Source: Rhizodiscina lignyota
Lineage: Eukaryota
NCBI GenBank assembly: GCA_010015805.1
Contig: ML978124.1
Coordinates: 372,001-436,000 of the forward strand
Direction of reading: 5' to 3'
Length of the DNA stretch: 64,000 bases
The notes beneath the pieces are model-generated. The model saw only the letters and a list, made by a program, of their open reading frames with translations. It was not told the DNA's origin and did not search any database. Numbering within the stretch: the stretch's first letter is position 1; each line of letters starts with the position of its first letter. This document shows, in pieces, positions 1 through 18,000 of the stretch. Position numbers and translations under genes: made by a program.

Positions 1-2100
1 GGATCGTCATCTTTCCGCTCCCGCATTTGACACTTTGCCCGTGATTTTCGCGGCGCACGCATTGCCCGTGCATCGTACTTTGCCTGCTCCTGGGCTCCAT
101 CATCTATTGGTGTCACCTCGTCTATTACTTCTCGCTTTCCCAACTGGCATTTTGCCGTTCTCCCAATCTCATGCAGCGTGGGTGCACGCTTGTCTTCTGC
201 ATTGATTGTGGTGCCTTTCGCAGTGGATATCTGGAATGCTACAGCGGCCACAGTGCCTGGCACACAGGGTACGGCGCCAATTTTACGCCTGGAAATGAGC
301 GTTAGTCAAAGGCGCACACTCGCAAATGGTCTTCGAAATTGTTATACTGACGAGATCAAAGTGCATCCCTGCCGTGATTCAAAACTGAGGGCAAGAGCCT
401 CGCCGCCTTCATCTACCCAAACTATAACAGTGTCTTCGTATGTCAGCTCTCCATCGTCATCACTATTACAATTAACGTGAATATCGTTACCTTGCTCTTT
501 GAAGTATTTGCTCGAACAGTTTATCTTTGAAATAAGGATGAGTCTGCCGGTTTCATCCTCTGACTCCACTTCGAGCCACAAATCTTTCTGTGATGTGATT
601 TTAGAGCCGACTAACAGTATCAGAGGATTGAGTATCATTGTCATACGATAGTGTCCGAAGTAAGGCGCGGAAATCGAAATTCGACAGTTTATGTCCGAAA
701 TATACACCTACTGCAACGTATCGCAGGCTGGCAAATCCAATTGCACAGTCAATCCAGTTGTCCGCAATTAGCTTGTAGTGCATACAGCGCATTCCTCTTT
801 TGGCTTTTGAGACACGAAGCCGTCGGAATTGTCTTGCATCTGGCGTAGCATCATCTGATTCCCTCTTTCTCTTCAATGACTTTGGTAGCTGTTCCAGTGT
901 TGAAAGGGCACTTTTGACTCGTGCATCTTGAAAGGTAGGTAGTAGTGGAGGCGCCATCCCAGCAAGATCATCGTCGGCAGTAGAGAAGTGAGTTCCGCAT
1001 CGAGAACTACAGAGCTGTTAGTGGGATGGGCCTATACTTTCCCATAAGAATATACAGTCAACATGATTTGGGACATACCAGGTGACACCAACTTGGGAAT
1101 CACCTCCAGACTCAAAATTACAACTTGGACAGCACTCAAGAGATGCTGAACTAATTGAGCTTGACTTCCTAGTAATAACCATGCTCATTGACACCCGTTG
1201 CCCAGGAAAGAAGCAGGAATCCCATGACCGGGAGAGGTTAATGTCTTCGTGAGTTCCATTATCTGTGATAACGAATTCGCCTCTTTCAATCATTCTTTGG
1301 CCGCACCCAGAAGGTTTAAAATTGACTTTCAATATTGCCACAAGGGCCTCGGCAGAGCGCACAAACTCAAGATGGAAAGGGCTATCCTTTCCAAAAGCGT
1401 CAAGCAAATAGACAGGCTGTTGATGCTGAGTTTGGCCGGGAATCTGGCATATGATGCGTTGTATATCGTGAACAGTCTTGAAAACGAGGAAGTTCATTCG
1501 GATAGCAGCTGCACTCAGCGTGAGAAGGCGCTTGCCTAAGTCGACGGTTTCTGTGACCGTGGTGTTAATGGCGGCGAGCTTTGCCATCCATTGAATAGAG
1601 AGCTCCTGAATTTTCGCCGCCAAAGTCTTATGGTGCTGTTCCTGTTTCCTGGCCTGAAGCGATCACGCATCGAATTGTATGCTCAACAACAATACCTCGA
1701 TTGAGCTGGTATGGCCTTGCAACTGTGCTCTAAAAGCTTCGACGTCATCCTTCTTGCACAGTGCCCATTTGATTCGATACCATGCATCTCTCATATTATT
1801 GGATCCGCCACGATGCCCAAGATGGGGTTGGTATTTCCGTATCTTCTTCAGGAACTCGTCGATGGTTGTTTGGCACTGCGCCGCAGCCTGACGCAATGCG
1901 ACCTTCTCCACATTCTGAGATCCATCGAACTCTAAGCGCTTTACCCGCAATAAAGCACTCTCAAGTTGATGAAGCTCGTTTACGAGGTCACGGTAGGTCT
2001 TGCCGGAGGAGGATGACTCGCGGAGAGCGTCGATAACCGTACCAACAAGTTTGAGCGCGGCGAGAAAATCGCCAGTGGAGAAACCGAAGCCTACCGACAT
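1..2100 (-). CDS. Multidomain protein: fungal N-terminal HeLo/SesA-like helical domain, ubiquitin-like domain, C4 zinc motif and Psy2/PP4R3-like EVH1 domain. One in-frame TGA at 1663-1665 (possible recent pseudogene); 3' end outside window
   Basis: ORF 2100-1663 (MSVGFGFSTGDF...) and ORF 1623-1018 are in the same frame across GCG-TGA-TCG. Introns 1078-1007 (GTATGT..CTAAC..TAG), about 711-588 (boundary uncertain), 490-434 (GTAACG..GCTGAC..AAG) and 351-289 (GTCAGT..ACTAAC..CAG) join all pieces in frame: CPSC..CSRC, FRRLRV, then WIDCAIGF..EVESEDETGRLILISKI..KEQDTVIVW..LALSFESRQGC. Frame stays open to base 1 (about 590 codons). Confidence 0.7.
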
Positions 2101-2318
2101 CGATCGAGGAGATTTCCGAATGTCAACGTCTTTTCATAGTTGGAATATCAAAAGTCCGCAATAAGAGACTTGTAGTTGGTAATTCGTGAGCGCCGTTATA
2201 GCAGGAGATATCGAAGAACTGCTACGTTTAAGGGGAATGAAAGAGGAAGAGTTGCGGAACCGCCACGGTCTCGTTCTAAGATGTAGACGACACACAATTG
2301 GATGTCGCTCGCCGACAC

Positions 2319-2479
2319 GCTTGCACGAGGCTGAATTTCTTGCACTACATAAGACTGAGACATGGGAAAGGGGTGTGCATGCTAGGGTCGGCCTTTAGTA
2401 GATTCCACATATTGAGCAACAGCCAACTCGAAAGCGTGCATGTACGAGGCTGCTTGCACAAGGCTGAATTTCTTGCACT
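2319..2479. repeat. 28-bp direct repeat, 2 copies, 1 mismatch
   Basis: GCTTGCACGAGGCTGAATTTCTTGCACT at 2319-2346 and GCTTGCACAAGGCTGAATTTCTTGCACT at 2452-2479. Confidence 0.9.
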
Positions 2480-2842
2480 CCTGAATCTCGCAGGTCACTC
2501 CGTGAATTACTAAGCCATTGTTGAGTGATATGAATATAATATTCTAGATTCGATCAGTGATACATCCAGCCATCAATCAGAATTCATAGTCGATGATTCA
2601 TTCGGTTCACCACACCGTAAGAGTTCCATCCCTCCGTGAGCGATCATACCAAATAGCCAAACTCAATATCGAGATCTAACAATACATGGTATATCGCAAG
2701 AGCTAGTCGTCAAATGCAAGAGGATTTGTTGTCAAACATTGTGACCAAAGCAGCAAAAAGTCGCAATGATAGATCATCAAGTTGCAAACGTAGATAGCGG
2801 AAACATTCAAGCCAGAACCACGGTAGAGTCGTCATGTGGCAT

Positions 2843-4698
2843 TTAAGCCTTCTCGGGGTCGTTGATGCCTCCTGCGGTGATGATATATGTCGCTTCTTTC
2901 TCGGCAACATCGGGAGAATCTACCAGACTTGTGAGAAATGGACCAAAGACCGCAGCCAACAATGGGAACCAGAAGCAGCCTCGAAGACGACGAAGAGAAG
3001 AAAGCACAGACAGCAGATAATGATCGGTGAACGTACCAACAATCTTTGCGACTCTTTCATCCTGACGACCCTTACGAAGTAATATGCGAGTTTGGGATGC
3101 GTGCGCAACGACATGGCCTCCGATAGCTTTTCGGCCATCAACTCCGGCAAAGAGCGCGTTGGCTCCGGGGTCAGATTGGACTTGATTGGTCTGCGAGTAG
3201 GTTAGTTGAAGTGATCGTGAACTATGTCTTGAATACGAGCGTCACATACGCAGAATATTGCGATGTTGAAGGCTATCATCAGTCAGCAAGCCGATCCAAT
3301 TCTCGAGGGTGACTCCAGATTAGCTTACTGTCTGCAATGTTGATCAACTTGCTCATAAACTGCCCAATCTTGGACTGTCGGTCCTGAAGCTCGCCTCTGC
3401 CAGTGTAGTCGACGCGATAGTGGGCCATCAGACTGTCAACGACAATAAGTCTGTACTCACCACTGACAAGCTGCTGCGAAAGAGTGTAAAGTAGCTCATT
3501 TTGGTGCTGCGAAACTGTTAGAACAGACTAAGTCTCCGCTCTCTTGTAACTGACTTCGCTATTGAAAGCTCGGGCGTAAAGGATATTCTCCTGAGCCGCT
3601 TCAGGATCAACTATCGCTTGTCAGTATGGTTTCAAAGCGGACTGCATATAGCTTCGAACCTCCGAAGCGCTTCGAGATCTCTTCAATTCTGTGCAAGTTA
3701 TCAGCCATACAGAAATGATCGCTGTCATCCTGACTATACCTCTCTGGACGGAAGGTGCCTTCAGTGTCTGGAGAGTACAGTCAGTAATTGAATGAATCCT
3801 CAGCAAGTTAACCGCATACCGATGTATGCGGCTTTGCCATCAGCACCGCCCATCGACTTGGGCAACTACAACATTGTCAGTGTTCGATCGTCGTTACCAC
3901 TTGCTGAAAGAAGTAAGATACCTGAGCCATCACGCAAAGAGTCTGGGCCATCTGGGTCTTGCCGCATCCTGTCACCGGCGTCAGCATTTCCATAGCACAA
4001 AAGCGGGTGGAAGACGTCGTACTGAACTCTCCGTAGACCTCAGTGATGCTCAGGCTTCGAATGCCACTGTCAAAGCACGTCAGCAACTACCAGGTCTTGA
4101 CATGCGCACAAAATGTGGCTCACCCGCCGAGTGCAGCATCTAGCTGCTTGCTCCCAGTCGAGATAATATGTAGCTTCTTTCGCTGATGCTTGAGTTCCGC
4201 AGCAGTAATGAAGCCTCCGATCGGTCCAGGCTAAGTCAGATGTCCACGTCAATGAGATCCAACGTCGAAAGATATCGAGCTTACCAGACACTTGGCCACA
4301 GCCTCCTTGACCTTGTCGACTTTGATCTCGCTGAAGCCTTTCACAGCGCTCAACTTCTTGCGCGTCGCTTGGTGGACATCCTGAGCCAGTATCTATCAGC
4401 CACATGCTTGATGGCTAAACGACGCGTCTGGGACGCGTCTGAGGACGAGCAGACTCACCGAAATGCAATAGAATCCATGGGCCTTGAGCTTCGCGATATC
4501 AGTGGCACCAATACCTGTGACGCGTTAGAGACTTGGTCTGGTACGACTTGAGGAGCACGACCAACCGTGGCTTTGGAGCTCATCGAGATCCACGATGAGG
4601 GTGGCGTGCTCCTGTAATGTGCTTCAGCCAACAATGGGAAAATACTCAAGGCCAATGGTACTCACGTCAGAAGCATCGCTGATGACGGAAGAAGGCAT
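2843..4698 (-). CDS. DMC1: Meiotic recombinase Dmc1 (15 exons)
   Basis: Manual splicing of 14 GT-AG introns gives MPSS...[12 protein letters not shown]...[14 protein letters not shown]...STGSKQLD...[14 protein letters not shown] (Dmc1-type Walker A with C)...[12 protein letters not shown]...LIVVDS (Walker B)...[10 protein letters not shown]...[10 protein letters not shown]...[19 protein letters not shown]...DSPD...GGINDPEKA*. Confidence 0.95.
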
Positions 4699-4710
4699 TT
4701 TGACGCGTCA
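4422..4710. promoter_or_regulatory. Cluster of four MCB-like ACGCGT boxes at the 5' end of DMC1
   Basis: ACGCGT at 4422, 4433 (intron 3), 4520 (intron 2) and 4703 (within palindrome TGACGCGTCA 4701-4710, just upstream of the ATG). Confidence 0.5.
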
Positions 4711-5672
4711 ATGGGTGATGCAGTAGTCGCACAGGCTGCTCAAGTGTGTAAATGAATCAGACAACGAGAGAAGACGGGAATAAGGCGAAGAAGGACTTCA
4801 AACTACACACGATATACCAGACGTGTGATTCTCCTGAGGTGTGGCGAGATTCGCATTGTGCGCCAAGCCTCGCGGGTGCCTGACGCTCCTTCCTGTTCTA
4901 ATGGGTGAGTGGCAGCCGACTTGCCTAGCTGAACCTGGGTGGGCTGATCGAACTGGAGCGCAAGTGATACTACGAGAGAAGAGTGAAGTAAACTTGTTCT
5001 TCGCATGCGGTTACAGGACTATGATCGGGTGGTCTATACTGGTCGAGGTGAACGCGAACCAGTCGGGATGAAAGTGAACTTGAGAGTTGCCGCACCAACT
5101 TTGCCATATGCATAAAAACGACTAGAAACTACCAACGGATGCAATCCCAGCAGATGCCTATTCCTTCCAGGACTGACCCCGACAAACTGAGCCATCGACT
5201 ACTTCCTCCTCTCTTCCTACTTCCCGTTTCTTGGCTCTTCAGTCCATTGCCTTTCCTACCAGCCTCTCTGCCTTCCTCAGTCCTCAAGATGTTGCTCGTC
5301 ATTGTGCGGCCCTTGCAACAAGAAACGTTGCAGTGGCGCATCCATGAAGACGTCCAATCGCTCGGTGATGAGGTGTCGTGGGGGTTGAAAACATGGGTAT
5401 CGGAATCTCGTGAATGAACTTGCTTTTTTGATGTATACGCAAGTGGATCGTGTGCAGCGTGAATGGTGTGTTGTCGGTGCCAGTGACGAGGAAAAGAATC
5501 GGGCAGCCGAGGGTGGATGGAAAAACGAAGACTTCAGGGGGGTGTAAATCGTCAAACGTCTAGCGAGTGTAAGGGATGGAACAATCGTGCACAAAGGGGA
5601 GAACCAGGTGCGATAAAATCAGAGGTATCCGTAACGCCTAGAACGGCATGCGAGTCGAGAACGAAGCTGCGC

Positions 5673-6456
5673 TTATGCAACAGCGGGAGCGGCCGCAACC
5701 GGAGCGGCAGCGGGGGCAACATTTGTAGCGGCGGCGTCGCCGTTGACCTCAGCAGTCTGAGTGCAATCCTTCGAGATGTGTCCAACCTCGCCGCAGCGGT
5801 AGCAGGTCTTGCCAGCAGTGTTGTTGAGTGTTCCACCGTTGGGAGCCGTGCAGTCCCTGGAGATGTGGCCGAGTTTACCACAGGCGTAGCACTTCATGGC
5901 CTGAGCCTGGCAGTCGCGCGCGAAGTGGTTCGGGCCTCCGCACTTATAGCAAGAGGTGGCTCGCGGGCCAGAGAATCCACCACGGAATCCACCATAGCCG
6001 CCTCGAGGACCACCAGCACCACGACCAGCACCGGGACCGGGAGCAGCACCGGGAGCACCAGCAACACCTTGGTTAGGGCATTGCCTCTGGATCAAGTTAA
6101 TATGGATATGCAGAAAACTGCTCGATGACTTACAGCAAGGTGTCCGACTTGACCACAGCTGTAGCAGCGACCACTGGTGGCTCCGCTGAGCCTCAAGGTA
6201 GGGCAGTCCGCTTGAACGTGTCCCAAGCCTTGACAGTGGTAGCACTGCTTCGTCTCGGTCGTACGAGGATGAGGGCAGCTGTTCGATTCGTGTCCAGGCT
6301 GCTTGCAATTGTAGCAGAGTCTTTCCGAAGACGAGCACACCTCTGCCGTGCTTTGTTACTAAGATCTTCCTCATGTTTGTTTGTCGCGTTCAACATACCC
6401 GCATAATGGCCCACATTGCCACACTTGTAGCAAGCACGGCGCGAAAGAGAAGACAT
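5673..6456 (-). CDS. GIS2: CCHC zinc-knuckle RNA-binding protein (Gis2/CNBP/Byr3 family)
   Basis: MSSLSRRACYKCGNVGHYA start; two coding introns; seven C-x2-C-x4-H-x4-C knuckles and an RGG-rich linker. Confidence 0.95.
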
Positions 6457-7314
6457 CTTGCTAGTTCTCCTTTCCTGTTCTGCGTGGTCGAGGTCAGATA
6501 ACGTGGCGAGTTGGAGCGATGCGACTCGATGGAATGAGGGCGTGCGCAGGCGATGAATGGGCCGGAAAAAGTCAGGATCGTACCTCTGAACCAAGTCCTT
6601 CGATTCCTTCACCTGAATTCAGCGTGTCAGTGAACGTGTATCGCAAGCGCGCAAGGCGCCGAAAAGCCAGGTTGAATACGGCGCGATGGGGCGGAGGAGG
6701 CGGGCAGCGGGCGACCTACTCTGCAGAGACCACTTTCACAGTCCTTCGCCTCAGCAACTCTTCCTTCAGACCGTCCCGCCCGTGCGACACCGAAAGTAAA
6801 CGATAAAAGCGCGAAGGGAGTGATGGGAAGGTGGAATGAAAGTGGGAGAAGAAGTGCTGCGGGCCGCGATGCAAATTCTCGGACAGGCGTCCGTGCACGC
6901 ACGTTTGCCGAGCACTGGTTAGTCCAAATACGGGACGCACCATCAGCTGCAGCGCGCCAGCATGCACACCACGCAGCCTTCTCCTGTAAGAGCTGCGCCC
7001 ATGGCCAACGACCGACGCAACGTCGACCAGGGCCCCGCGCCGCCTGCTCATTGGCCTGCCCTGAAATGTGATACCTCACACGCTTTGCACGAGGTGTGTA
7101 ACTGCGCGCGTCTTACTGGAAGTGCTCGAGAGATGGGCACGCTAGGTTGTTTCAGCGCTCGCAATTAGCTGAACAGAGCTGTACATCGTCGAAACGGGCC
7201 AGTTTCACTCTACGAACGTCTGTCGTCTACCTGGTATCCATGCGCCGAAAAGGGACAAAACTTTTCTTTTTGCTGGTCCAAACCTGCACGCTAACATGCC
7301 CATGTCTATGTTCT

Positions 7315-8924
7315 TCACTCCTCCTTTTCGAGGACAGCTGGCGCCTTGATCGTCTTGCCCTTCATGAAGTCGAGTCCCTCACCACCCTGGCAACAGTAAG
7401 CGAGTGTTGATCGGATCAGGAAATGACGAAAGAGAGACGGAAACTCACGTAGCTGAGCAGCGGAGACACTTCCACACCGTCATCGGCGTTCTCGCTCTCC
7501 ACCACTCCTCCCGCTCCCTCGACCCACCTGGTGCCTTGCTTCATGATATCCCTCTTGCTCGTGTCTTGATCGTCCTGTCCAGTGCCCTTGGCGTTCTTCA
7601 GCGGTGAGAACTCGTCTTCCCTCTTCACCTCCATGCATGCAAACTTCTCCATTGGCAGGAACGGGAAGCAGTCGAAGACGAACTGCTCCAGTTTGACGCC
7701 ATTGGGCTTCTCTGGCTTGACGCTCTCACCGTTCTCCATGTTGACGCATGGGATCTTCTTCTTGGCCACGTGATGTGGCAACTTGTTCGCCCACTGCGGG
7801 ATGCTCTCCAAGAAGCTGCAGGAGTAGTAGTGGTTGACGATGTTTGCCGCTCGGAATTTCAAGATTTCCGGGTTATGCGGATCCTTTGCTTCGGCCGTCG
7901 CAGCGTCAATCTCAGAGTACTCAACAACGTCTGGCTTGCCATTCTTTTCGACGATCAAACCGACTGACTCCTTTGCGTCGCGCTTTCGGACAACCTTGGT
8001 CGCGATATTGACGTTCTTTGATGCAGCAAAGCCAATGAATGTGGGGTCGGCGACCTTGACGAGGCAGTTGTCGACACAATATGCGTGGATATGCTTGATA
8101 CCGCGCCTAGACATGTCTCCAACAACACCAGATGTAATCAGAGCCTGATAGAGGCCACCGTTACCGTCTGGTGCTACCGCGACCTTCGATTTGCTCTCCA
8201 TGAGGATCTTTCCGTCATTCGAGATGCAAGGAAGAACACCCTGCTCGAAGATCATGACGTTGTCTTTGTTGAGTCCAAAGTAATTGTTCTTCTTGAAGAA
8301 CTCCTCTGTTGGCCCTCTGGTCGGTCCGCTGGTCATGACATACCACGGCACCACGACGCTGTCCTTGCCTTGCTTCTTCGCTCCCAACTGTTGTGCCTTC
8401 CAAATCCTCTCCGCCTGCATCTGAAATAAGCTCTTCCGACTTGGCAGTCCAATATCGTAGCATCCTTTGGGTGCTGAACTACCCAACCTTGTACCTTGTC
8501 CTCCAGCCATGAGCACCACACCGACTTTGTTCTCCCCGATGAGGTCGAGACCAGACTCGTACCATTTCTCCAAGTCCGATCGCGCCGAGTCGAGGACAGA
8601 TGAGGTGGCAGATTCTGGGAGAGGCTCAAGCTTCGCCTCCTCTTTGCCTTCCGTCTTTGGAGGGTTGAGGGCTTTGTCGGCGAGCTCGTTGATGCGGTCA
8701 GGGTCGAAGTTCGAGAGCTGGGCGAAAAGAGCCGCTTTTTCGGAGGCACTCAAAGTATCGTAGAATGCAAAGACGTGATCTTGCCCAGCTTTTTCATATT
8801 TGCTGCGGAGCTCTTTGACTTCGTCTGCACTAGGCTCGTTTGCTGGCGTAGCGGAGCTCTCCTTGCCTGTGAGATGGAGCTTCTCAGCGAGGCTGTGGAC
8901 GACTTCTTTGACTGCTGCTGCCAT
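7315..8924 (-). CDS. UAP1: UDP-N-acetylglucosamine pyrophosphorylase
   Basis: [39 protein letters not shown] motifs. A GTGAGT intron after SPLLSY joins the last exon [23 protein letters not shown]. Confidence 0.97.
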
Positions 8925-9548
8925 GGTGAAAAATCTTGTGCAATGCTCTTGGTGACCGTGAAACGAAGGACCGGTCGAGGTGAGACGGTGAGCTTAAATG
9001 CAAACAAAATCAGGGGTGAAACAACGGAAAGTTGAAGGATCGCACGTTGTTTGGGAAATCTTTGCCATGGGTCCATCCATCTCAGCTCCAGCTCGTTTCT
9101 CGGGGCAGCAAGACGTCACCCCGCCTCTATTTTAAGGACCCCCCGCGCCCGCACCCCAGGGGCTACGAAGTACCCCCCGTACAGTGCTTTGACGACGAGT
9201 CAATTGGCAGCTTCGTTAAGCGTGCAATGCTTTTTGGAAAACAACAACCTCAAGCAGAAAGAGCTTGATTGTCATCCAAAATATGCTCTCTAATGAGAGT
9301 TAAGGGGGCCATGGCGGCACGTCCCAGTGGGCAGTTACCAGGTTACTTAGGTATTTTCAAGCGTCCAAAGGACAGGGAGGGCACGACCAATGCGACCTGC
9401 ATGCAAATAGGTATTCAGCTAAAGATTCTTCTTCATCTCCAACATCGACCAACGCCTGCATCGAGCATGGCATTCATTAATCTCAAATCCACTTGATCGG
9501 AGCTTTCTGTGTCAAAGAACACTTCCCTTAATCATATCCGCACTGATA

Positions 9549-11651
9549 ATGGAGCTCTGTTCGAGATGTAATAGCATCACCCTTGAGAAATTAACTGCGC
9601 CTTTACCAGATCCGGCACCTTCTGTACCATCTCATCGGAGGCAGTCTTTAAAGGGTTACAATGGCTTCCCTGATATGCGCCGGGGGAGCATGTTGTTGTT
9701 TGAGGACTACGGAAAATTCATTATCTCTAAAGAAACATGTCCGCTATGTCAACTTATTTTTCAGGAGCTTCGAAGCCTCCACGGGCTCAATTATACTTCA
9801 ACGCGTAACAGGCCCATATACATTACTCCAAAGAAGGACGAGCTTGGTCGTACTTTCCCCTACCTAACGGGGTCTGGCCACTTTATCACTGGTCTTGTTG
9901 TCGCCTTCTGGGGACAACACAGACCGCGCTGTCGAGAAGTCAGCGTGAGGCTGTTCGCAGAGAGAAGTGCGGTAATTCCACGCCTTTGCAAACCTAGCTG
10001 ACTTCTCGGAAGGCCACCCTGCGGCGCAGAGCGGTGACATTATCGGTCGCAGATTCCTCCCCAGCTCTGGCTGCGACGAAGCTGGGCAACTCATACGAAG
10101 CTGGCTAAATGCATGCAAGAGGGAACACCGTAAATGCACTGAAACGTTATCCAGGCACATCATGGATGACACCCAAGAGCCGACATTGCCAAAACGTGTC
10201 ATCAAGATCTCGCCCCTTGAAGAGCCTCTTAGGCTTCGGCTGATGATCTCTCACGGCAAGACTGGTCGATATGCTACACTGAGCCATTGTTGGGGACCTC
10301 CGGAAATGTCTCCACTGACAACAACTAGCCATAATTTCGAAGCGCACTTAAAGGCCATCGACTGGGCCAAACTACCGAAAACATTCCAAGATACCGTCCA
10401 CGTAACAAGGCAACTTGGGCTGACATATCTTTGGATAGACTCGATATGTTCGTTTCATTCACCCTGATACCGGTTTTTACACTTACCACTTCACCAGGTA
10501 TCATTCAGGACGATACTGAAGATTGGCTAACTGAATCCGCCAAAATGGGCACCGTTTATGAGCGCTCGGAAGTCACGATTGCTGCGTCTCACTCCGTCCA
10601 TTCGTGGCAAGGATTGTTCTTGAATCGATCGTCCCAGTCACCGCCCATACCTCTACCTAACTTCGACCCGCGAAGCAAAGATCTCTGTATTTACGCAGAA
10701 GCTTTCCTAAAGGACTACGCAGCCATCCAACCGGAGAGTGGGCCTCTTGCTAAGAGAGCTTGGGCGACACAAGAGTGGCTTCTTGCGCGAAGAATGATAT
10801 TTTATTGCAGAGACCGCATTCTCTGGTCCTGCCAGACCATCACGCAAGAGGAGACGGGAGAGAAGCGGTACAACACTGCGCGCAACCCGAAGTGGAAGAT
10901 TATCACGGAGCATTATTCTGAACGGCAATTAACGAAGGCAACCGATCGGCTCGTTGCGCTGAATGGCCTCGTCTCTGAGCTGTCAAAACGACTAAATGAC
11001 AGCTACATTTTGGGCCTGTGGAAGAATGCGTTGCCGGATCAGCTACTGTGGCAAGTGTCCCAGCAGGTCAAGGAGCCTTCGAACCCCCTCCAATTGCCGT
11101 CTTGGACCTGGGCGTCTGTGCCTGTTGGGATACGATACATGATCATCAAAAACGCCAAGAACCACTGCCGCCAGATAGACACGAGTGTTTCTGGATCGAT
11201 CACGATTACTGCGCGGTTGAAAAGGATATACGACCTGCGGGACGGAGGAGACCACCGTCTCAATGGGTTGTACCCTGGCATCTGTGGAGCGGTAGGTGGC
11301 GATGTTTACGCTTCCAACGCCAAAAATACTCCCCGGATGTTTTCTTATGTTGTCGACAGAGATAACGCAGAGTGTGGGTGGGCTGTGCTTGATCATTCGA
11401 TATCAAGTGACGCTAGCCTACCACCGCTATATGCCCTTGCCCTCATGGGATCACTTACGCGCAAAGCCAGCGAGCAGGACTACACCGTACCTTCTGGAGC
11501 TCAGTCGTCATCTAAAATCCAGGAATATTGGATCCTTCTTCTCGAGGCGCAAGATCTGGCTACTCACACCTTCACTCGCGTCGGCGTCGGTAAAGTGTAC
11601 GGCCAGGAATACTGGAAGGATTCGGCAGTTCAACGTGTAACACTGGTCTGA
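9549..11651 (+). CDS. HET-domain (heterokaryon incompatibility) protein
   Basis: Introns 9967-10012 and 10448-10497 join three ORFs in frame. Motifs YATLSHCWG, LPKTFQD, YLWIDSICIIQD, MGTVYERS..TIAA, RAWATQEW, PSWTWAS. Confidence 0.93.
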
Positions 11652-11832
11652 ACTGCTTGCGCCATGTTCGTCCACAAGGCGGAGGTGGGTCAGCAAGGCG
11701 TTCATAACGAGCAGAATTTTTTTTTTCGCTATGCAGAACTGGAAGCCGGCGTGTCAGATTCTCGGCGACATTATTACAAATTTAGCAGCAAACCATGCTG
11801 TCCGCGAGACCGGCAACAGAATCTCCTCACGT

Positions 11833-13052
11833 TTAAGCCGTCGGCCCCATAATCAGAGTCTTGATGCCCTTCGCCGCCTTCACGTCATGAAACGCCTGCT
11901 CGGCCTCTTCGAACTTCACTTTCCCCGTAATCAGCTCCTTCACGCTGATTCGCCCCGTCGAGATCAGTTCCACCGCGAGCCGGTAGTCGCCCTCGCTGTA
12001 TCTGAAGCTCCCCTTGACGTTCAACTCCTTCGTGCCCATCGCCGAGATGGGCCAGACGATCTCGTCCTTCCCCATCCCCGCCTGCACATAGGTACCGCCT
12101 GTCCGCAGCGCATGTATTGACGTCTGGATGCATATCTCCGCGCCGCTGGCGTCGATGATCACGTCTGCGCCACCGCCCAAGTTGGTCTCTGACAGCAACC
12201 TCTTTGCGCTGTCCTTTGCGCTCTCCTTCTGGCTCCGGAAGACCGCGGTCGCAGCGTACTTTTTCGCAAACTCTAATCTCTCGTCGTTGATGTCGACAGC
12301 GATGACTTTGGTCGCTCCCCACGCCTTCGCTACTGAGCAGCATAGCAGTCCCACAGGACCAGCGCCGAACACCACGACGCTATCGCCGGGCTTGATGTCA
12401 CCTTGCCGGCAGACATGTACCGCCACGCTCGCGGGCTCGACCAGCGCGCCCTCCTCCAGCGAGACATGACTCGGTAGCTTGTAGCAGAAATCCTCCGGCA
12501 GCGTGTAGTATCTCGCGAGCGTACCGTCGATGGGTGGCGTTGCGGCGAAGGCCATGTCGGGGCAGAGGTTATATCGGCCCTCCTTGCATCGCACGCAGCG
12601 TCGGCAGGGGATTCCGGGCTCCATTGCGACCTCATCACCCGGTTTGACGGTTGTGACCGCGCTTCCGACGCTGTGTACTACGCCTGCGGATTCATGGCCG
12701 AGGACCATTGGAGCTTCGACGATATAGTGACCGATGTGGCCCTCTTGCCAGTAATGGATCTGGGGTTTGGAAGTCAGTATACTTCGTGAGGGCGATGATT
12801 GTCAGGGTGTGGAAAGCATACATCGCTTCCGCAGATTCCAGTGAACTTGACTTCGACAATGACATCGTGCGGATCTTGATCTTTTATTTCTGGGACGGGA
12901 CGGTCTTCGAATTTGACTTTGCCTTTCGACTCGAGGATGAATGAAGGGTTCTGAATTCAACTGTTAGCCTGTCAATTGCATTTTGCCGTTGCCGTGCTGT
13001 CTTTTCAATGCTCGATGCGGGGTGATCGCGGGGCTCGTACCTGGTTTCCCAT
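11833..13052 (-). CDS. xdhA: Xylitol/sorbitol dehydrogenase (Zn-dependent MDR family)
   Basis: Exons MGNQ / NPSFILES...FTGICGSD / IHYWQEGHIG...MVLGHES; structural Zn C-x2-C-x2-C-x7-C; GAGPVG; GSFRY. Confidence 0.9.
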
Positions 13053-13294
13053 TGTGGTGATAATGAAGTATTCAATGCGAATGAGAGAGAGATTGTGTCG
13101 AAAATAAACTATTCAGACAGCAGAGGATTGAAAGCAGCCCAATTGTTGAGGAGGAGAAATTTCGTCGTCGAGCTCCAGAATCTCCATCGTGATTCATGAC
13201 GCTATTTTGCGCGCGACGCGTCGTGATTCGGTGGGATTTCTCCCGTGGCGTACGCCATCCGAAAGAGGGACCTCCGCTCTCGGCTGACGACCAA

Positions 13295-13314
13295 TTTATC
13301 CGCGACTTTATCCG
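13295..13314 (-). promoter_or_regulatory. Tandem CGGATAAA sites (AraR/XlnR-type CGG(D/N)TAAW) upstream of xdhA
   Basis: TTTATCCG at 13295-13302 and 13307-13314, about 250 bp upstream of the ATG of a pentose catabolic gene. Confidence 0.6.
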
Positions 13315-14714
13315 GTCACTCTCACGGACTTCTCCTGCTCTCGCTCTCGACTTTGTTGGGAGTCAGATATCGTGACCGCTCTTTGTTTCCAGCGCCTCGT
13401 TCCGTTGACCGCACTATGTCACGAGGTAGCATACGCCGTCTGACAACATATGCCAACTGCAAAGCTGCGGTTCCGCAGTGGAAACCTTCATATTAACTGT
13501 CGCCGGGAATATCCAGCTTCTCTCGACTTGGCGGGTTGGCCGGCACGATATCCGTCCCACGATGTTCCAAGCGCTCTTCTACACGACCGTCGAATCATTA
13601 CTGAGCACTGGGGAACCGTCTTTTTCCGTGTGACGCCATGGGATAGTTCCCGTACCTAGTGGACGTGGTCGAGACTTTCTTACTCCGCTGTCGAAGACCC
13701 GGAAAAACGCCATGGCGTCACACGAAAGTGTGGTATAGAACCTTAACTGGCAGCGGTTATAATATCTTCCAGGAGACTAGTTCGTTTCGTCACATAATTC
13801 GCCAAATTTGCATCGCCAAATGCGCCATATGCGCCGCTCGACCAAGCGATATGCCATGATTGCCATCCAGATCGCACATTAACGCAGCCCTGCAGTACGG
13901 ACTAGCCAGCTAGTCTGCGCGAGTTCAGCCCATTGCCATGGATCTGGATAGTGCAAAACCAGAGTGGTCCGGCACATACAACTGTAGTTACGCGTCCCAG
14001 AGCCGAGCGAAGCTGAGAACCCGAGAGTAGCCATCCAGTCAAAGGCGTTGATAGTGGAAACATTGCTGACGCCATTGGAATTCCCAACGAATTAGCTTTG
14101 GCCTTGCTCACATGATCGTGAGCAGCTGCGCGCGATGGTGCGCATGCGGCGTGCCGAGGGGTATCACAAAAAGCAATGGTACGAAACAGACGTACGCGCC
14201 AACGATGGCACGCAGGCAAGCGCAAAAAGTGTGTGGGTGACAGGGAACAACGATAATGTGCATTGATGAAAAGCGAGTTCCATGGGGCCTGGCGTGCCCG
14301 TCCAACATGTGAAATGGAAAACTGGAGAAACTCAAAGCTAACAGAAATGACAGGAGCGACGTATCGTACAAGTCTTTGAGCCAAAACGCCAATAAAGTGA
14401 GTTGAAAGCGAAATGAAAATGCCCGAGCGCGCCAAGACGACATGGGAAAGTAGTCATACATGATTTGAAAAACGCCCCGAAATGGAAACCATCCAAACAG
14501 TTGCAGAACGATTGCAGAGCGGAAAGTGCCTGATCAGACTGGAAAGGGTATTTCGAATTGACAGCATCCTCAAGTAAGACGGTGCCCCGGAAGTTTATTC
14601 CGTTTTGCCGGACTAAACGAGTCGTCCGAAATGCGAGCATTGGCTGTTGCTCGGCGGTGTTGGTAGAAGAGAATATCGCCGTAGTGAATAGGGTCAATGG
14701 AGGAGCGCAACACC

Positions 14715-15037
14715 CTAACCTCTTGAGCCGCTATAGTAACCGGAATCTGGTGTCGACATGACGCCTCCTTGCGAACCGGCAGTGGACGATCCTCCTCTGC
14801 CTCTTGAATGCGTTGCGCATGCGTATCCGACGAGGACGGTCTTCTCTTGAACGGAATGGCCGCGTTGGCCGTATGCTGAGCATGCGTCTACCGCGTGGAC
14901 ATGGTATACACAATAGCACGCCGAATAGCTGTGAGAACATCAGCTCTGTCTTTTACTCAAAGTGGGCACGCGACTGGGTGAGGAAGACGCATAAGGAATA
15001 CGAGACGCGCCTACCGTTCGACGACTTGATAACACAT
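14715..15037 (-). CDS. 78-aa Cys/His-rich microprotein of unknown function
   Basis: Exon 15037-15015, intron 15014-14929 (GTAGGC..GCTGAT..CAG), exon 14928-14715 gives MCYQVVERYSACYCVYHVHAVDACSAYGQRGHSVQEKTVLVGYACATHSRGRGGSSTAGSQGGVMSTPDSGYYSGSRG*. The N-terminus resembles a small uncharacterised Pezizomycotina family as I recall it (not searched). Confidence 0.8.
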
Positions 15038-18000
15038 TGCGCACGTTTATGAAGGAGATGGAGGCTAGAGACAATGGTCTGAGGCCGGAAAGCTTCGAGA
15101 ATGTTCGATTGTGCCGAAGGAGAGGAGACGAGACTGACAATCGATGAGGGTGGAAGGATGAGGTATACGTAAGAGCGGGAGGATCCAGAGGTGAATCTCT
15201 GGGAATGGGTCTGAATGTCTCGGAGCGTAGGGCTGAGGGCATGAATATAAAGCCTCAGAGGTGTAGGAGCTATGCGTGGTTGGTAATTTTGACAGATGCG
15301 TTTGTCACTCGAAAGGCCCGTCCCGTTCGTCCCGTCGTTAGCTGTCCTCGTGAGAGATCCGCATTTGATTGAAGGCAGACATTTCCGTGATCTTGATCGC
15401 CAACTGATTTGAGAGCAGATATAGTTGGGGGCTGCAAATCTATATAGCGACGAATGTGAGTGGTGAGCGGGTCGACAAGGGCTTAGAGGAGTAGCAGGAA
15501 AGAGGAACGGTCAGCAACGAGGAAAGGTGTGAGCGCAGTGATCGAAATAGGGCTGTATGAGAAGCACGCTTAGCACCGCCATGGATAGGCTAAGCTCCGG
15601 CGCACATCTAGAGATTGTGCCCGTGCAAGGCAACAGAGCGAGTGGACATGGACAGCGTGTGGCAGCAGACGTTCCCCAAGGTCGCTCAGATGCATATCCA
15701 GTGTACTGGAGTGAGGTACTAGCAGGCATCGAGCGGGACCTAGAAGGGGACCCACCATGTTGGCGCAGTTTGCTGCTTCTGCAGCATATTTTGGGTTGGA
15801 CAGGACACAGCGAACCCGATGACAGTGATAGCGGATTACTTGCATTGAGTTGACATGAGCCTCGGACGACATTCCCAATGACGTTTGCGGGGATCGCGGG
15901 AATGTTGGGAAGATCTCATGGAAATTCACCAGAGAGGAAAGAGCGGCGTGACCGCTCGGCCTATGCCGCGTGGAGCAGTTCGGTGCGGGAATGGCTCGCC
16001 GATTCGATCGGAACCGAAGGAAACAATGGGATATGGCGCAAAGCTAGGCACCGGTGACGGCGGGAGTGGTCGGCGGCAACGCGGGGGACGGAGGCCCACG
16101 CGCGTCCGTCGGGATATCAGCCTGGTAGGTTTCTGTACAGTGTCGTGGACCAGCAGGGTGGTGGAAGCCACGTTTCTGACGTCCGGACATGTAGCACCGC
16201 CGCGAGAATGCGAAGGGAGCTAAGAAACCAATACATTTGTTACTGAGGCGCAGATCGCTAGCCCTGGGCGGGCACTGCGTTTGACGGCGGTGACGTGAGA
16301 CATGAGACTGTACGGGGAAAATAGAAGTCGCTCAAGACGGCGGCATTTATCATGCTGCTTGTCAATCAGGGAGTTCTCGAGCGCTCAGAGGGCGATTGAG
16401 CTTGCGAGAGACCGAAAGCAGATGGAGACATACCTGCAAATGGAAAGGATGTGGCAGGAGAGAGCCGAAGATGGAGACTGTTGTCTGAATGGAATCATCG
16501 GCCGGCGTGAGCATGTTGGGTTAGCATGATCGGGGGAGGGATAAAAGCAAAGTGGTCGTCAGTGTCGTACCCCAGCCTGCGAGTCGGTCGAGTGCAGGCA
16601 CATACGACTACGACGGTACAAGGCTCCAAGGGCCAAGGCCCCACATTTGCCCTAAGAATAGGCGTGTCAGGGATTTCGAGGTTTAGTCTGAGAAGAGTGC
16701 CTGCGCTGGACGCAAAGTCAAGAAGCAGTTTGGTCTCCTCCGTCCAAGAAGCGATTCGTGAACGATCGGCGCGGCATTGCGTCCGTATGCAGTATACATA
16801 GAGCAATTGGTGCCTCCGAAGCACGGAGTGCCCGATAGACGAGATGAAGCGCGAGCAGCAGAGGCAGCAAAATCCGTGTGTGCCGTCGAGTCTAACGCGC
16901 GCCAGAAAGGCGTGAGTAATCTGCAGGGGAGGGACAGTAAGCACTTCCTGGAGATAGGCGGTGTTTGTGCTCGGCTTCGACAATCTTCGATGGGTACGAG
17001 AAAGATACCGAGAGAGATACCGAGCGAGATCCAGCGAGCTACAAGCAAGGCCGTCCATGCTACGAGGCCGTGGCGACTGGTTTGATCGACAGACTCTGGT
17101 GTAGCAACGGCTGACATGAGTGTTACAGGAGAATTATTGGAACTTTGCGAATCGGATGGCAGCCGGAGGTGGCATGCTCTGCACGATGCTAACGCGGTGT
17201 TTGCAATGCTCGATATAGCAGCGGGAATGCAACATGGACAAGGCCCTTCAACAGTTGACTCATGAATCCACTTTGCGGCCTTTGAGCGTGAAATTCGCGG
17301 TGATGGCCTGACAAATAGTGCATGCAGAGATGGCATGGCCTGAACGAGAAGCAGGTCACGTTCCTACGCGATCCCCGGATTGACGCGGCGTGGGAGGGGT
17401 GTCGATGTCTTAGATCCTTCGTTCAAAGCTTTGTTGTATCCTACACGAGTCGGCCATCAACGTCTCAATGGGGCAATTAATGCTTTTCTAGAAAGATTCC
17501 GAACTCAGACCCGCTCCGCAATTACAGATCGTGTCACCGCCTCACATCGTCAGTCCCCATCGACCCGACCTGAAACAGCACCGCGGAGCTCTGTCGTCAT
17601 CTGCCAATGTCCTAAAGTCCCAGTTAAAGTAACTTGTGCCTTTAAATACCTCTGCTTCACACGAGAGCATGAGAAACGCTCTGCCTTTAAGCTCCAACAC
17701 GCGATCACCTCATATCCATTCTTCACGTCTTGGACACCGGAGAATAGAAGTTTAGTAGGTTTGGATTTGGAATGCATTGTGCAATATATCCGATATACAT
17801 AGTACTGGACTATCAGAATGCTGCAGCAACACGGTCCACTCCCGTATCTGCAGAACAGGTCAGGCCCCCAACCGTGCCCAGGGCCTGCGTCCTGAAGCTT
17901 GACGCACATCCGCTCCCTCCCGTCCCTTGAGCCTTCTTCACAGCCACACCTCGACCCCACATACACCTCTTTCCCCTCCATCTTCCCAGTCGCATGTCTC

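Follow-up and report, generated by a model that had tools for sequence, protein, structure and literature searches.

The FxxP ligand motif of the PP4R3 regulatory subunits of protein phosphatase 4 (PP4) was reportedly defined, together with the structure 6R8I, by Ueki et al. in 2019 (Mol Cell). The EVH1 domains of these subunits bind FxxP and MxPP motifs, the ligand proline being sandwiched by Trp20 and Leu70 (Falafel numbering), and an L70A change abolishes binding (PMC7776573). A second kind of system is formed by fungal HeLo-like domains: PF17111 is the Helo_like_N profile and aligns with the MLKL executioner domain, and HeLo-like domains serve as MLKL-like execution domains of fungal NOD-like receptor (NLR) systems, according to the available part of PMC9815663. 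For NLRs of Sordariales, the available part of PMC12258605 proposes putative integrated decoys. Here we describe a gene that brings a HeLo-like domain and a PP4R3-type EVH1 domain together in one protein. It lies at the beginning of a 64,000-nucleotide stretch of Rhizodiscina lignyota DNA (the window; assembly GCA_010015805.1, contig ML978124.1, positions 372,001 to 436,000 of the forward strand), on the minus strand, running from an ATG at 2100 past base 1, and its annotated product, P0001, comprises 592 amino acids encoded by six exons. The C-terminal module is an EVH1 domain that was copied together with its introns; it stems from the 5' exons of a PSY2/PP4R3 gene, the rest of PP4R3 being absent. 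On balance we favour the reading that this EVH1 domain acts as a short-motif recognition module, with a possible MxPP latch, on a conserved HeLo-like/ULD effector chassis, and that this particular copy may be disabled.

Three domains of P0001 scored above their Pfam cut-offs: PF17111 at residues 15-142 (E-value 4.7e-9, 36.4 bits, cut-off 27.2), PF22893 (ULD_2) at residues 203-287 (3.9e-16, 59.4 bits, cut-off 24.5) and PF22972 (EVH1_PP4R3) at residues 391-476 (1e-12, 48.5 bits, cut-off 27). The same domains were recovered from single reading frames, namely PigL_N/PF17111 from 2100-1663 (2.5e-11, 43.8 bits, cut-off 27.2, with SesA at 0.022), ULD_2 from 1662-1018 (2.3e-16) and EVH1_PP4R3 from 707-342 (6.6e-7, 29.9 bits, cut-off 27). 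An earlier note, made from the sequence alone, had recognised by eye a HeLo-like/SesA domain at the N-terminus, a ubiquitin-like domain followed by a CxxC...CxxC motif in the middle and a PP4R3-type EVH1 domain thereafter. The profile matches bear out all three of these assignments, the CxxC pairs forming a C4 zinc ribbon that is completed by splicing. For the EVH1 domain, Pfam, sequence matches to solved structures and fold matches concur. The sequence matches are human PPP4R3A (6r8i_A, E-value 5.3e-10) and fly Falafel (4wsf_A, 3.3e-9). In the AlphaFold2 model of P0001, computed from a 20-row alignment with a mean predicted local distance difference test (pLDDT) of 66, the pLDDT reaches 85-91 over EVH1 residues 390-480 and about 90 over ULD residues 200-290. 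The top Foldseek matches of the EVH1 model are the same two structures, 6r8i_A and 4wsf_A, with template modelling scores by target of 0.71 and 0.70 and root-mean-square deviations of 2.1 and 2.3 A; identity to the solved EVH1 domains is 39-41% over the aligned fold. The EVH1/PH-fold match whose absence would have refuted the earlier note is thus present.

The possibility that the gene is simply PSY2 was rejected. P0001 is not a PSY2 product because it has no SMK-1 domain: PF04802 was not found in it by Pfam, in its downstream part or elsewhere, the EVH1 domain occupies residues 391-476 of 592 and is not N-terminal, and the protein ends about 110 residues past EVH1 in a tail predicted to be disordered. 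Since the SMK-1/Arm part is missing, this EVH1 domain would be unable to bring in the phosphatase. A NACHT or NB-ARC nucleotide-binding (NOD) domain was likewise not found in P0001 by Pfam at E-values up to 0.01.

The exon coordinates were obtained by mapping P0001 onto the window sequence. Exon 1 (1696-2100, residues 1-135, start codon at 2100) encodes the helical HeLo-like N-domain PF17111 (PigL_N/Helo_like_N), and its N-terminus, MSVGFGFS, is near-invariant in an alignment of P0001 with 19 relatives. Annotated intron 1 (1627-1695, 69 nt), which has weak splice signals and contains an in-frame TGA, is followed by exon 2 (1079-1626, residues 136-317 and two bases of codon 318), which specifies a long helix, ULD_2 (1425-1171) and, from 1131, the first zinc-ribbon CxxC. 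Intron 2 (1007-1078, 72 nt, GTATGT...CTAAC...TAG) interrupts in phase 2 the codon of Cys318, which belongs to the second CxxC. Exon 3 (712-1006, residues 318-416) is the physical link of the fusion and contains the second CxxC (to 997), a MAPP motif (957-946), KRKR (873-862), FRRLR (828-814) and EVH1 strands 1-2 (from 792). Intron 3 (588-711, 124 nt, phase 0) has a GTAGGT donor and a CAG acceptor without a clear branch consensus. The middle EVH1 strands are encoded by exon 4 (491-587, residues 417-448 and the first base of Asp449), which is separated by intron 4 (434-490, 57 nt, GTAACG...CTGAC...AAG, phase 1) from exon 5 (352-433, residues 449-476), coding for the EVH1 core with DTVIVW...ALSFESRQGC. 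After intron 5 (289-351, 63 nt, GTCAGT...CTAAC...CAG, phase 2), exon 6 (1-288, continuing past the window) encodes the last part of the C-terminal EVH1 helix (to about 273) and the poorly conserved tail, the final 21 residues of P0001 being encoded to the left of base 1. Introns 2, 4 and 5 carry ordinary fungal signals, with GTATGT, GTAACG and GTCAGT donors and CTAAC or CTGAC branch sites. The earlier note had assembled four fragments into one frame; the single spliced gene stands, with six exons instead of four pieces, and the introns that the note had placed at 1078-1007 and 711-588 agree exactly with annotated ones, as does its 57-nt intron (490-434). All the pieces it had described were confirmed where it had placed them.

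Splicing of intron 2 completes the second CxxCG of the zinc ribbon that characterises the family to which the gene belongs; of the 19 other aligned relatives, 17 have a cysteine where P0001 has Cys318. The following exon, 1006-712, is free of stops from the zinc-ribbon half through KRKR and FRRLR into the first two EVH1 strands. Since this single exon encodes the second zinc-ribbon half, the family motifs and the start of EVH1, the fusion is real: the family core and the EVH1 domain are joined within one exon. In the public models of P0002, P0004 and P0019 the cysteine is replaced by W-Y-V or W-L-V, and the second-CxxCG motif is disrupted exactly there. Such tripeptides are the signature of read-through at a donor of the TG/GTATGT type (a slash marks the junction), and the unspliced frame of the window reads likewise; because the read-through occurs at the very same site, intron 2 is evidently conserved and these three models are faulty. 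The visible errors of several public models at this intron could also be turned into an argument that P0001 is an annotation chimera, in which a HeLo-ULD-zinc gene ending near 1018 was wrongly merged with a small EVH1 gene or a PSY2 fragment, the more so as the unspliced frame 1662-1018 stops just after ...WYVPNHVDC... and all junctions are predicted from the gene model and the sequence. We regard such a merger as extremely improbable. Removal of 1078-1007 restores an invariant motif, and the same exon then runs via the near-invariant KRKR and FRRLR into EVH1. Moreover, 12 of the 17 relatives that keep the cysteine, those reaching the EVH1 region, continue in one frame, and fewer than 250 nt lie between the two parts, which would leave no room for a terminator and a promoter.

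The origin of the EVH1 domain was traced through its introns. A word-based search with the window EVH1 alone matched only itself and was replaced by a profile of six EVH1 segments; this profile recovered canonical Psy2 proteins of Sordariomycetes, and an alignment of eight of them led to 80 PSY2-like loci on metagenome contigs, which stand in for the PSY2 gene of the host itself. Breaks were mapped by a tblastn search of these loci with residues 1-130 of P0043. The match was unbroken in 46 of the 80, which represent intron-less genes or transcripts, and the remaining loci showed recurrent breaks after P41 (23 of 80), between Q78 and D79 (18) and between W107 and K108 (7). On inspection, the donor follows directly past the P41 codon in four of six loci (phase 0); the Q78/D79 junction (QKQQ/DTLIVW) reads ...CAA G/GT (or GC)...AG/AY in all seven loci inspected (phase 1), and the W107/K108 junction reads ...TG/GT...CAG/G AAA in five of five (phase 2). 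Introns 3, 4 and 5 of the window gene fall at the aligned positions, ...RYVA/KDLW, ...KEQ/DTVIVW and ...CTLIS/RKIG, and have the same phases, i.e. phase 0, then G/AC, then TC/G. Because three intron positions and phases are shared, the EVH1 domain goes back to a genomic copy of 5' exons of a PSY2 gene together with their introns, and not to a retrocopy. The view of the earlier note that the domain had been captured is thereby well supported. Two of the PSY2-like loci, L033 and L040, have an apparent GC donor (G/GCATG) in the QKQQ/DTLIVW intron, while the five other inspected loci have GT.

The phylogeny of the domain is less informative. EVH1 trees of 127 and 47 rows, from both of which 46 short N-terminal fragments were left out, are based on 101-104 columns and are poorly resolved: 12 of 122 inner branches are starred in one and 3 of 44 in the other. 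Long branches lead to the fused copies; the end branch of the window EVH1 measures 1.5-1.7, compared with about 0.03-0.2 for canonical Sordariomycete Psy2. In an approximately unbiased (AU) test on an author-chosen set of 47 rows (8 fused and 39 other EVH1 domains; LG+G4, quick search), the grouping of the eight fused domains as one clade gave p = 0.589, and the constrained tree was better by 2.75 log-likelihood units, so that a single clade of fused EVH1 domains is not rejected. Taken with the flanking architecture that the fused domains share, this result would make a single old capture, with later divergence and loss, the simplest history, although it is not proven.

The gene is a member of a conserved Pezizomycotina family with a variable C-terminal module. 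A search with the ULD exon matched 41 proteins (376-2000 aa searched), P0001 among them, the named source species belonging to Sordariomycetes, Eurotiomycetes, Dothideomycetes, Leotiomycetes and Lecanoromycetes. The constant part consists of the HeLo-like N-domain, the long helix, ULD_2, the C4 zinc ribbon and a linker with KRKR and FRR[VI]R; identity to P0001 over whole proteins is 41-55%, the N-terminus, ULD, zinc ribbon and FRRVR being near-invariant. Past FRRVR the tails vary and consist of an EVH1 domain, a GATA finger (P0017, E-value 7.6e-10, above cut-off), C2H2-like Cys/His patterns, a weak Hpt match (P0035, below cut-off) or nothing recognisable. Tail variants were noted among P0017, P0034, P0035, P0022, P0027 and P0028, and the Hpt case bears the source name 'Multistep phosphorelay regulator 1'; an Atlas cluster joining ULD_2 with TPR repeats is a lead only. 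PF17111, PF22893 and PF22972 occur together in 9 of the 41 proteins in precomputed annotation, and the same domain order was found in annotated proteins from all five ascomycete classes. The EVH1 profile matched 13 of the 41, and P0009, added by eye, brings the EVH1-bearing members to 14. The true share is probably higher, since several public models that seem to lack EVH1 simply terminate at its conserved introns or continue into them: P0007 ends in ...QRQQG, P0011 and P0013 break off after GTG, and P0008 (from Coccidioides) ends shortly past ...KQQG. In the literature searched, which lay mostly outside subscription journals, we found no paper joining a HeLo-like with an EVH1 domain, no study of PF17111-ULD_2 family members, and none of the terms PF22972, PF22893, EVH1_PP4R3 or ULD_2 (in the Pfam sense) in any paper located. 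The claim of the earlier note that the architecture was undescribed thus holds for this literature; the architecture is not a one-off, being present in the Pfam annotation of at least nine public proteins.

In the EVH1 domain of P0001, the residues lining the ligand groove are Tyr, Trp and Val, with Val in place of the ligand-contact Leu, and the complete Tyr/Trp/Leu set is kept in P0005, P0006 and P0019. The linker contains an M.PP motif 17 residues past the second CxxCG, which reads MAPP in the window protein (957-946), MLPP in P0005, MAPP in P0007 and MPPP in P0009. P0004 has MPPP in the corresponding sequence block, where the spacing is unreadable because the model is disrupted just upstream, and P0006 and P0003 have MPPR and ILPP at this site. 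M.PP is present in 5 of the 14 EVH1-bearing family members and in none of the 27 without EVH1, against a background of 8 occurrences in 103,941 residues of unrelated proteins. A one-sided Fisher test on the family counts gives about 0.003, which overstates the support because the five cases stem from about three lineages. MAPP is a mapped EVH1 ligand in the fly protein CG8478 (PMC7776573) and, in the available part of bioRxiv 10.1101/2025.06.13.659448, an EVH1 ligand in human KAP1. These observations suggest that the linker M.PP is a candidate built-in ligand. The EVH1 domain most likely represents an FxxP/MxPP recognition module that would couple ligand binding to the HeLo-like/ULD part, and the linker motif could serve it either as an autoinhibitory cis latch or as a head-to-tail contact in oligomerisation. 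The earlier note had missed the MAPP motif of the linker.

Several observations weigh against this reading. The ligand triad is degenerate in P0014, P0015, P0021 and P0023, so that FxxP/MxPP binding cannot be the universal role of the module. In the window protein itself, Val sits at the position where a Leu-to-Ala change abolishes binding; moreover, Ala replaces the first Gly of GxG, and the Trp of the C-terminal helix is a Ser. The five M.PP cases, derived from about three lineages, are not independent. The MAPP stretch is disordered in the AlphaFold2 model (pLDDT below 45) and was not seen docked; a complex prediction of EVH1 residues 386-490 with linker residues 323-362 scored 0.01, but was run with the alignment unused and without controls and is not evidence either way. 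The splice junctions, and with them the putative removal of the in-frame TGA, are predicted from the sequence and the gene model, and no activity test of any member of the PF17111-ULD_2 family was found in the literature searched.

The same features of groove and linker could be accommodated if the family were a regulator or substrate of PP4 and not a death effector. An EVH1-only copy would compete with PP4R3 for FxxP/MxPP substrates, or the linker MAPP would recruit genuine PP4. The retention of the Tyr/Trp/Leu(Val) site in the Chaetomium, Talaromyces and window members would fit such a role, as would the presence of an experimentally known ligand motif within a disordered linker and the basic KRKR motif, which could be a nuclear-targeting signal. 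However, this explanation leaves the best conserved parts of the protein, the HeLo-like domain, the ULD and the zinc ribbon, without a function, and the ligand triad is lost in 4 of the 14 EVH1-bearing members. We consider both the modulation of PP4 by this route and a family of PP4 regulators or substrates quite improbable.

PP4R3-type EVH1 domains occur in other unusual contexts. The EVH1 profile matched 1320 representatives at E-values up to 1e-3, and 34 proteins with a non-N-terminal EVH1 domain, taken from the best 150 of these matches, were scanned with Pfam. PF04802 is present in 12 of the 34, which are PP4R3 genes with a displaced EVH1 domain (one also has an N-terminal Serinc domain). 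The other 22 lack it, and half of them show no further Pfam domain; the remaining 11 combine EVH1 with RRM (four proteins), La, KIX and PAH, or homeobox, C2H2, PHD, Myb and WW-type domains, and include one tandem EVH1 and one NACHT protein. The EVH1 fusions without SMK-1 comprise P0076, P0112, P0136, P0138, P0139, P0063, P0108, P0117, P0123 and P0054. In the tandem protein, P0061 (1068 aa, from Logan), four to five EVH1_PP4R3 domains follow one another and Pfam recognises nothing else; its repeats form one starred clade. Judged by domain content, the PP4R3-type EVH1 domain is a mobile peptide-binding module in fungi that is widely reused outside PP4. The NACHT case is the Seiridium cardinale protein P0190 (KAM0810766.1), which contains DUF7708, NPHP3_N/NACHT and a C-terminal, near-canonical EVH1_PP4R3 domain with the Tyr, Trp and Leu residues intact; at least one NLR thus has the domain in the sensor position. 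The Seiridium cardinale proteins P0190 and P0210 (1061-1065 aa) provide a candidate integrated bait domain in a true NLR.

The earlier note had interpreted the window protein itself as an integrated decoy or sensor. In this scheme the EVH1 copy would mimic PP4R3 as bait, and its binding by a microbial or viral effector would release a membrane-attacking HeLo-like domain. Several lines of evidence are consistent with it. The N-terminal domain is of the MLKL-like execution type described above, and the three shared intron positions and phases identify the EVH1 domain as the duplicate of a housekeeping host domain, as an integrated decoy requires. The domain evolves fast, as its end branch indicates, and the Seiridium cardinale NACHT protein bears it at the C-terminal, sensor-like end. 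The C-termini of the family vary (GATA in P0017, weak Hpt in P0035, and TPR as a lead from the Atlas cluster only), and comparable decoys are among the proposals for Sordariales NLRs cited at the outset; EVH1 or PP4R3 was not found in the text of PMC12258605 or in 12 of its 17 supplementary files. We know of no fungal effector aimed at PP4, which counts against the scheme. A virus does interfere with substrate recruitment by PP4:SMEK1, but the adeno-associated virus (AAV) Rep protein binds the HEAT/Arm part of SMEK1 and not its EVH1 domain (both from the available part of bioRxiv 10.1101/2025.06.13.659448). P0001 has no nucleotide-binding domain, and the ten neighbouring open reading frames (ORFs) scanned within 16 kb contained no NLR gene. 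Typical immune genes turn over fast, whereas the constant part of this family is strongly conserved throughout the five classes (41-55% identity over whole proteins). RRM, La, KIX/PAH and transcription-factor-type domains (homeobox, C2H2, PHD) are further fusion partners of the module, so that a copied EVH1 domain is not in itself a decoy or immune signature. All in all, the decoy interpretation of the window protein appears unlikely.

A more elaborate scheme would make the family NOD-less executors of death or alarm that act as self-contained guards. The EVH1 domain, clamped on the MxPP pseudo-substrate of its own chain, would restrain the HeLo-like domain, a pore-type domain held through the ubiquitin-like/zinc-ribbon hinge. 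The N-domain would fire once the latch was displaced by any molecule binding in the groove of the EVH1 domain or altering it, for instance an effector directed against PP4 or large amounts of unphosphorylated FxxP/MxPP clients, and the Seiridium NACHT-EVH1 protein would be an NLR version of the same bait. We judge this scheme distinctly unlikely as a whole.

Whether the window copy is still functional depends on a TGA codon at 1665-1663, in frame at codon 147, which the earlier note had also missed. The annotation avoids it by removing 1695-1627 (69 nt), whose in-frame translation is VLLLSIQFDA-stop-SLQARKQEQHHK. In each of the 19 other aligned relatives the excised stretch corresponds to 23 coding residues, so that the HeLo-like domain of the annotated model is interrupted by the loss of a segment that all of them keep. 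The signals of this 69-nt 'intron' are weak: its donor is GTATTG, its acceptor AAG, and it lacks a CTRAY branch site. In-frame excision of 42 nt (1695-1654) would be an alternative that has a better acceptor, yet is very short. A Logan contig of a public run, with a mean depth of 150, is identical over 1-2200; as it carries the same bases at this depth, the TGA is not a consensus slip, although the run may be the source of the window itself. Downstream of the TGA the gene is intact over 446 codons, and its four introns there are good. Two explanations offer themselves: the stop arose recently, or the 69-nt segment is truly spliced out. We see about an even chance that the locus is a recently disabled allele which, unless the weak intron is spliced, could yield only a 146-aa HeLo-like fragment. 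Together with the read-through of two conserved introns in the relatives, a stop codon hidden in a possibly invented intron points to systematic gene-model errors in this family.

The neighbouring ORFs were scanned with Pfam. On the minus strand they include a Rad51-like exon (2843-3241), an ORF with a triple CCHC zinc knuckle (5673-6389), a UDPGP gene for UTP-glucose-1-phosphate uridylyltransferase (7416-8993) and a zinc-type alcohol dehydrogenase (11833-12801). On the plus strand, about 8 kb from the HeLo-like gene, lies a 438-aa ORF (10335-11651) with a heterokaryon incompatibility (HET) domain (PF06985, E-value 1.6e-7). The ten ORFs among which no NLR gene was found lie in 2100-16000. GC content is 45-50% over the gene and 49-59% nearby. 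A repeat-induced point mutation (RIP) or transposon context was considered and dropped, the GC content giving no sign of a RIP-degraded island and the neighbours being ordinary genes.

To our knowledge, control of a HeLo-like domain outside the amyloid/NLR route has not been described. HeLo-like domains are the fungal counterpart of the MLKL death domain, and the family presented here couples one to a copy of the substrate-recognition module of PP4; the presence of a known ligand motif of that module in the same chain would provide a mechanism concrete enough for laboratory tests. The locus represents a clean, intron-verified capture of a housekeeping domain into an immune-type fungal protein, which bears on the question of whether fungi use bait domains as plants do.

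The nearest relatives of the window gene are the hypothetical PF17111-ULD_2 proteins of its own family, such as CHGG_08502 of Chaetomium globosum, which share the N-terminus, the ULD, CxxC...CxxCG, KRKR and FRRVR, but of which only 9 of 41 have EVH1 by Pfam (13 by profile and one by eye), the others ending in GATA, C2H2-like or unassigned tails. With PP4R3 proteins (Psy2, SMEK1-2 and Falafel; 6R8I, 4WSF) the window protein shares PF22972 and the Tyr and Trp of the groove, and with fungal PSY2 genes three introns; it differs in the C-terminal position of its EVH1 domain, in the absence of the SMK-1/Arm link to the phosphatase, in Val for Leu and in an EVH1 branch about ten times longer than those of canonical fungal Psy2. 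Like the HELLP-type HeLo-like proteins and the MLKL bundle, it has an N-domain that matches PF17111 above the cut-off. Unlike in HELLP, no C-terminal amyloid signalling motif was noticed, no formal motif search having been made, and the ten ORFs scanned within 16 kb included no partner NLR; moreover, its HeLo-like domain precedes ULD_2, a zinc ribbon and EVH1, and has its end cut by the TGA. A duplicated host signalling domain is likewise placed on an immune-type protein in the integrated decoys known from plant NLRs and in the CHK-2 kinase domains regarded as putative decoys in Sordariales NLRs (available part of PMC12258605), whereas P0001 lacks NB-ARC/NACHT, a paired helper and a known effector, so that the likeness is one of logic only. 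The Seiridium NACHT protein begins differently, with DUF7708 and an NPHP3_N/NACHT NTPase in place of the HeLo-like domain and ULD, and its EVH1 domain lies apart from the fused family in the tree, with weak support; in both proteins, however, the same type of copied domain stands at the C-terminal end of an immune-type protein.

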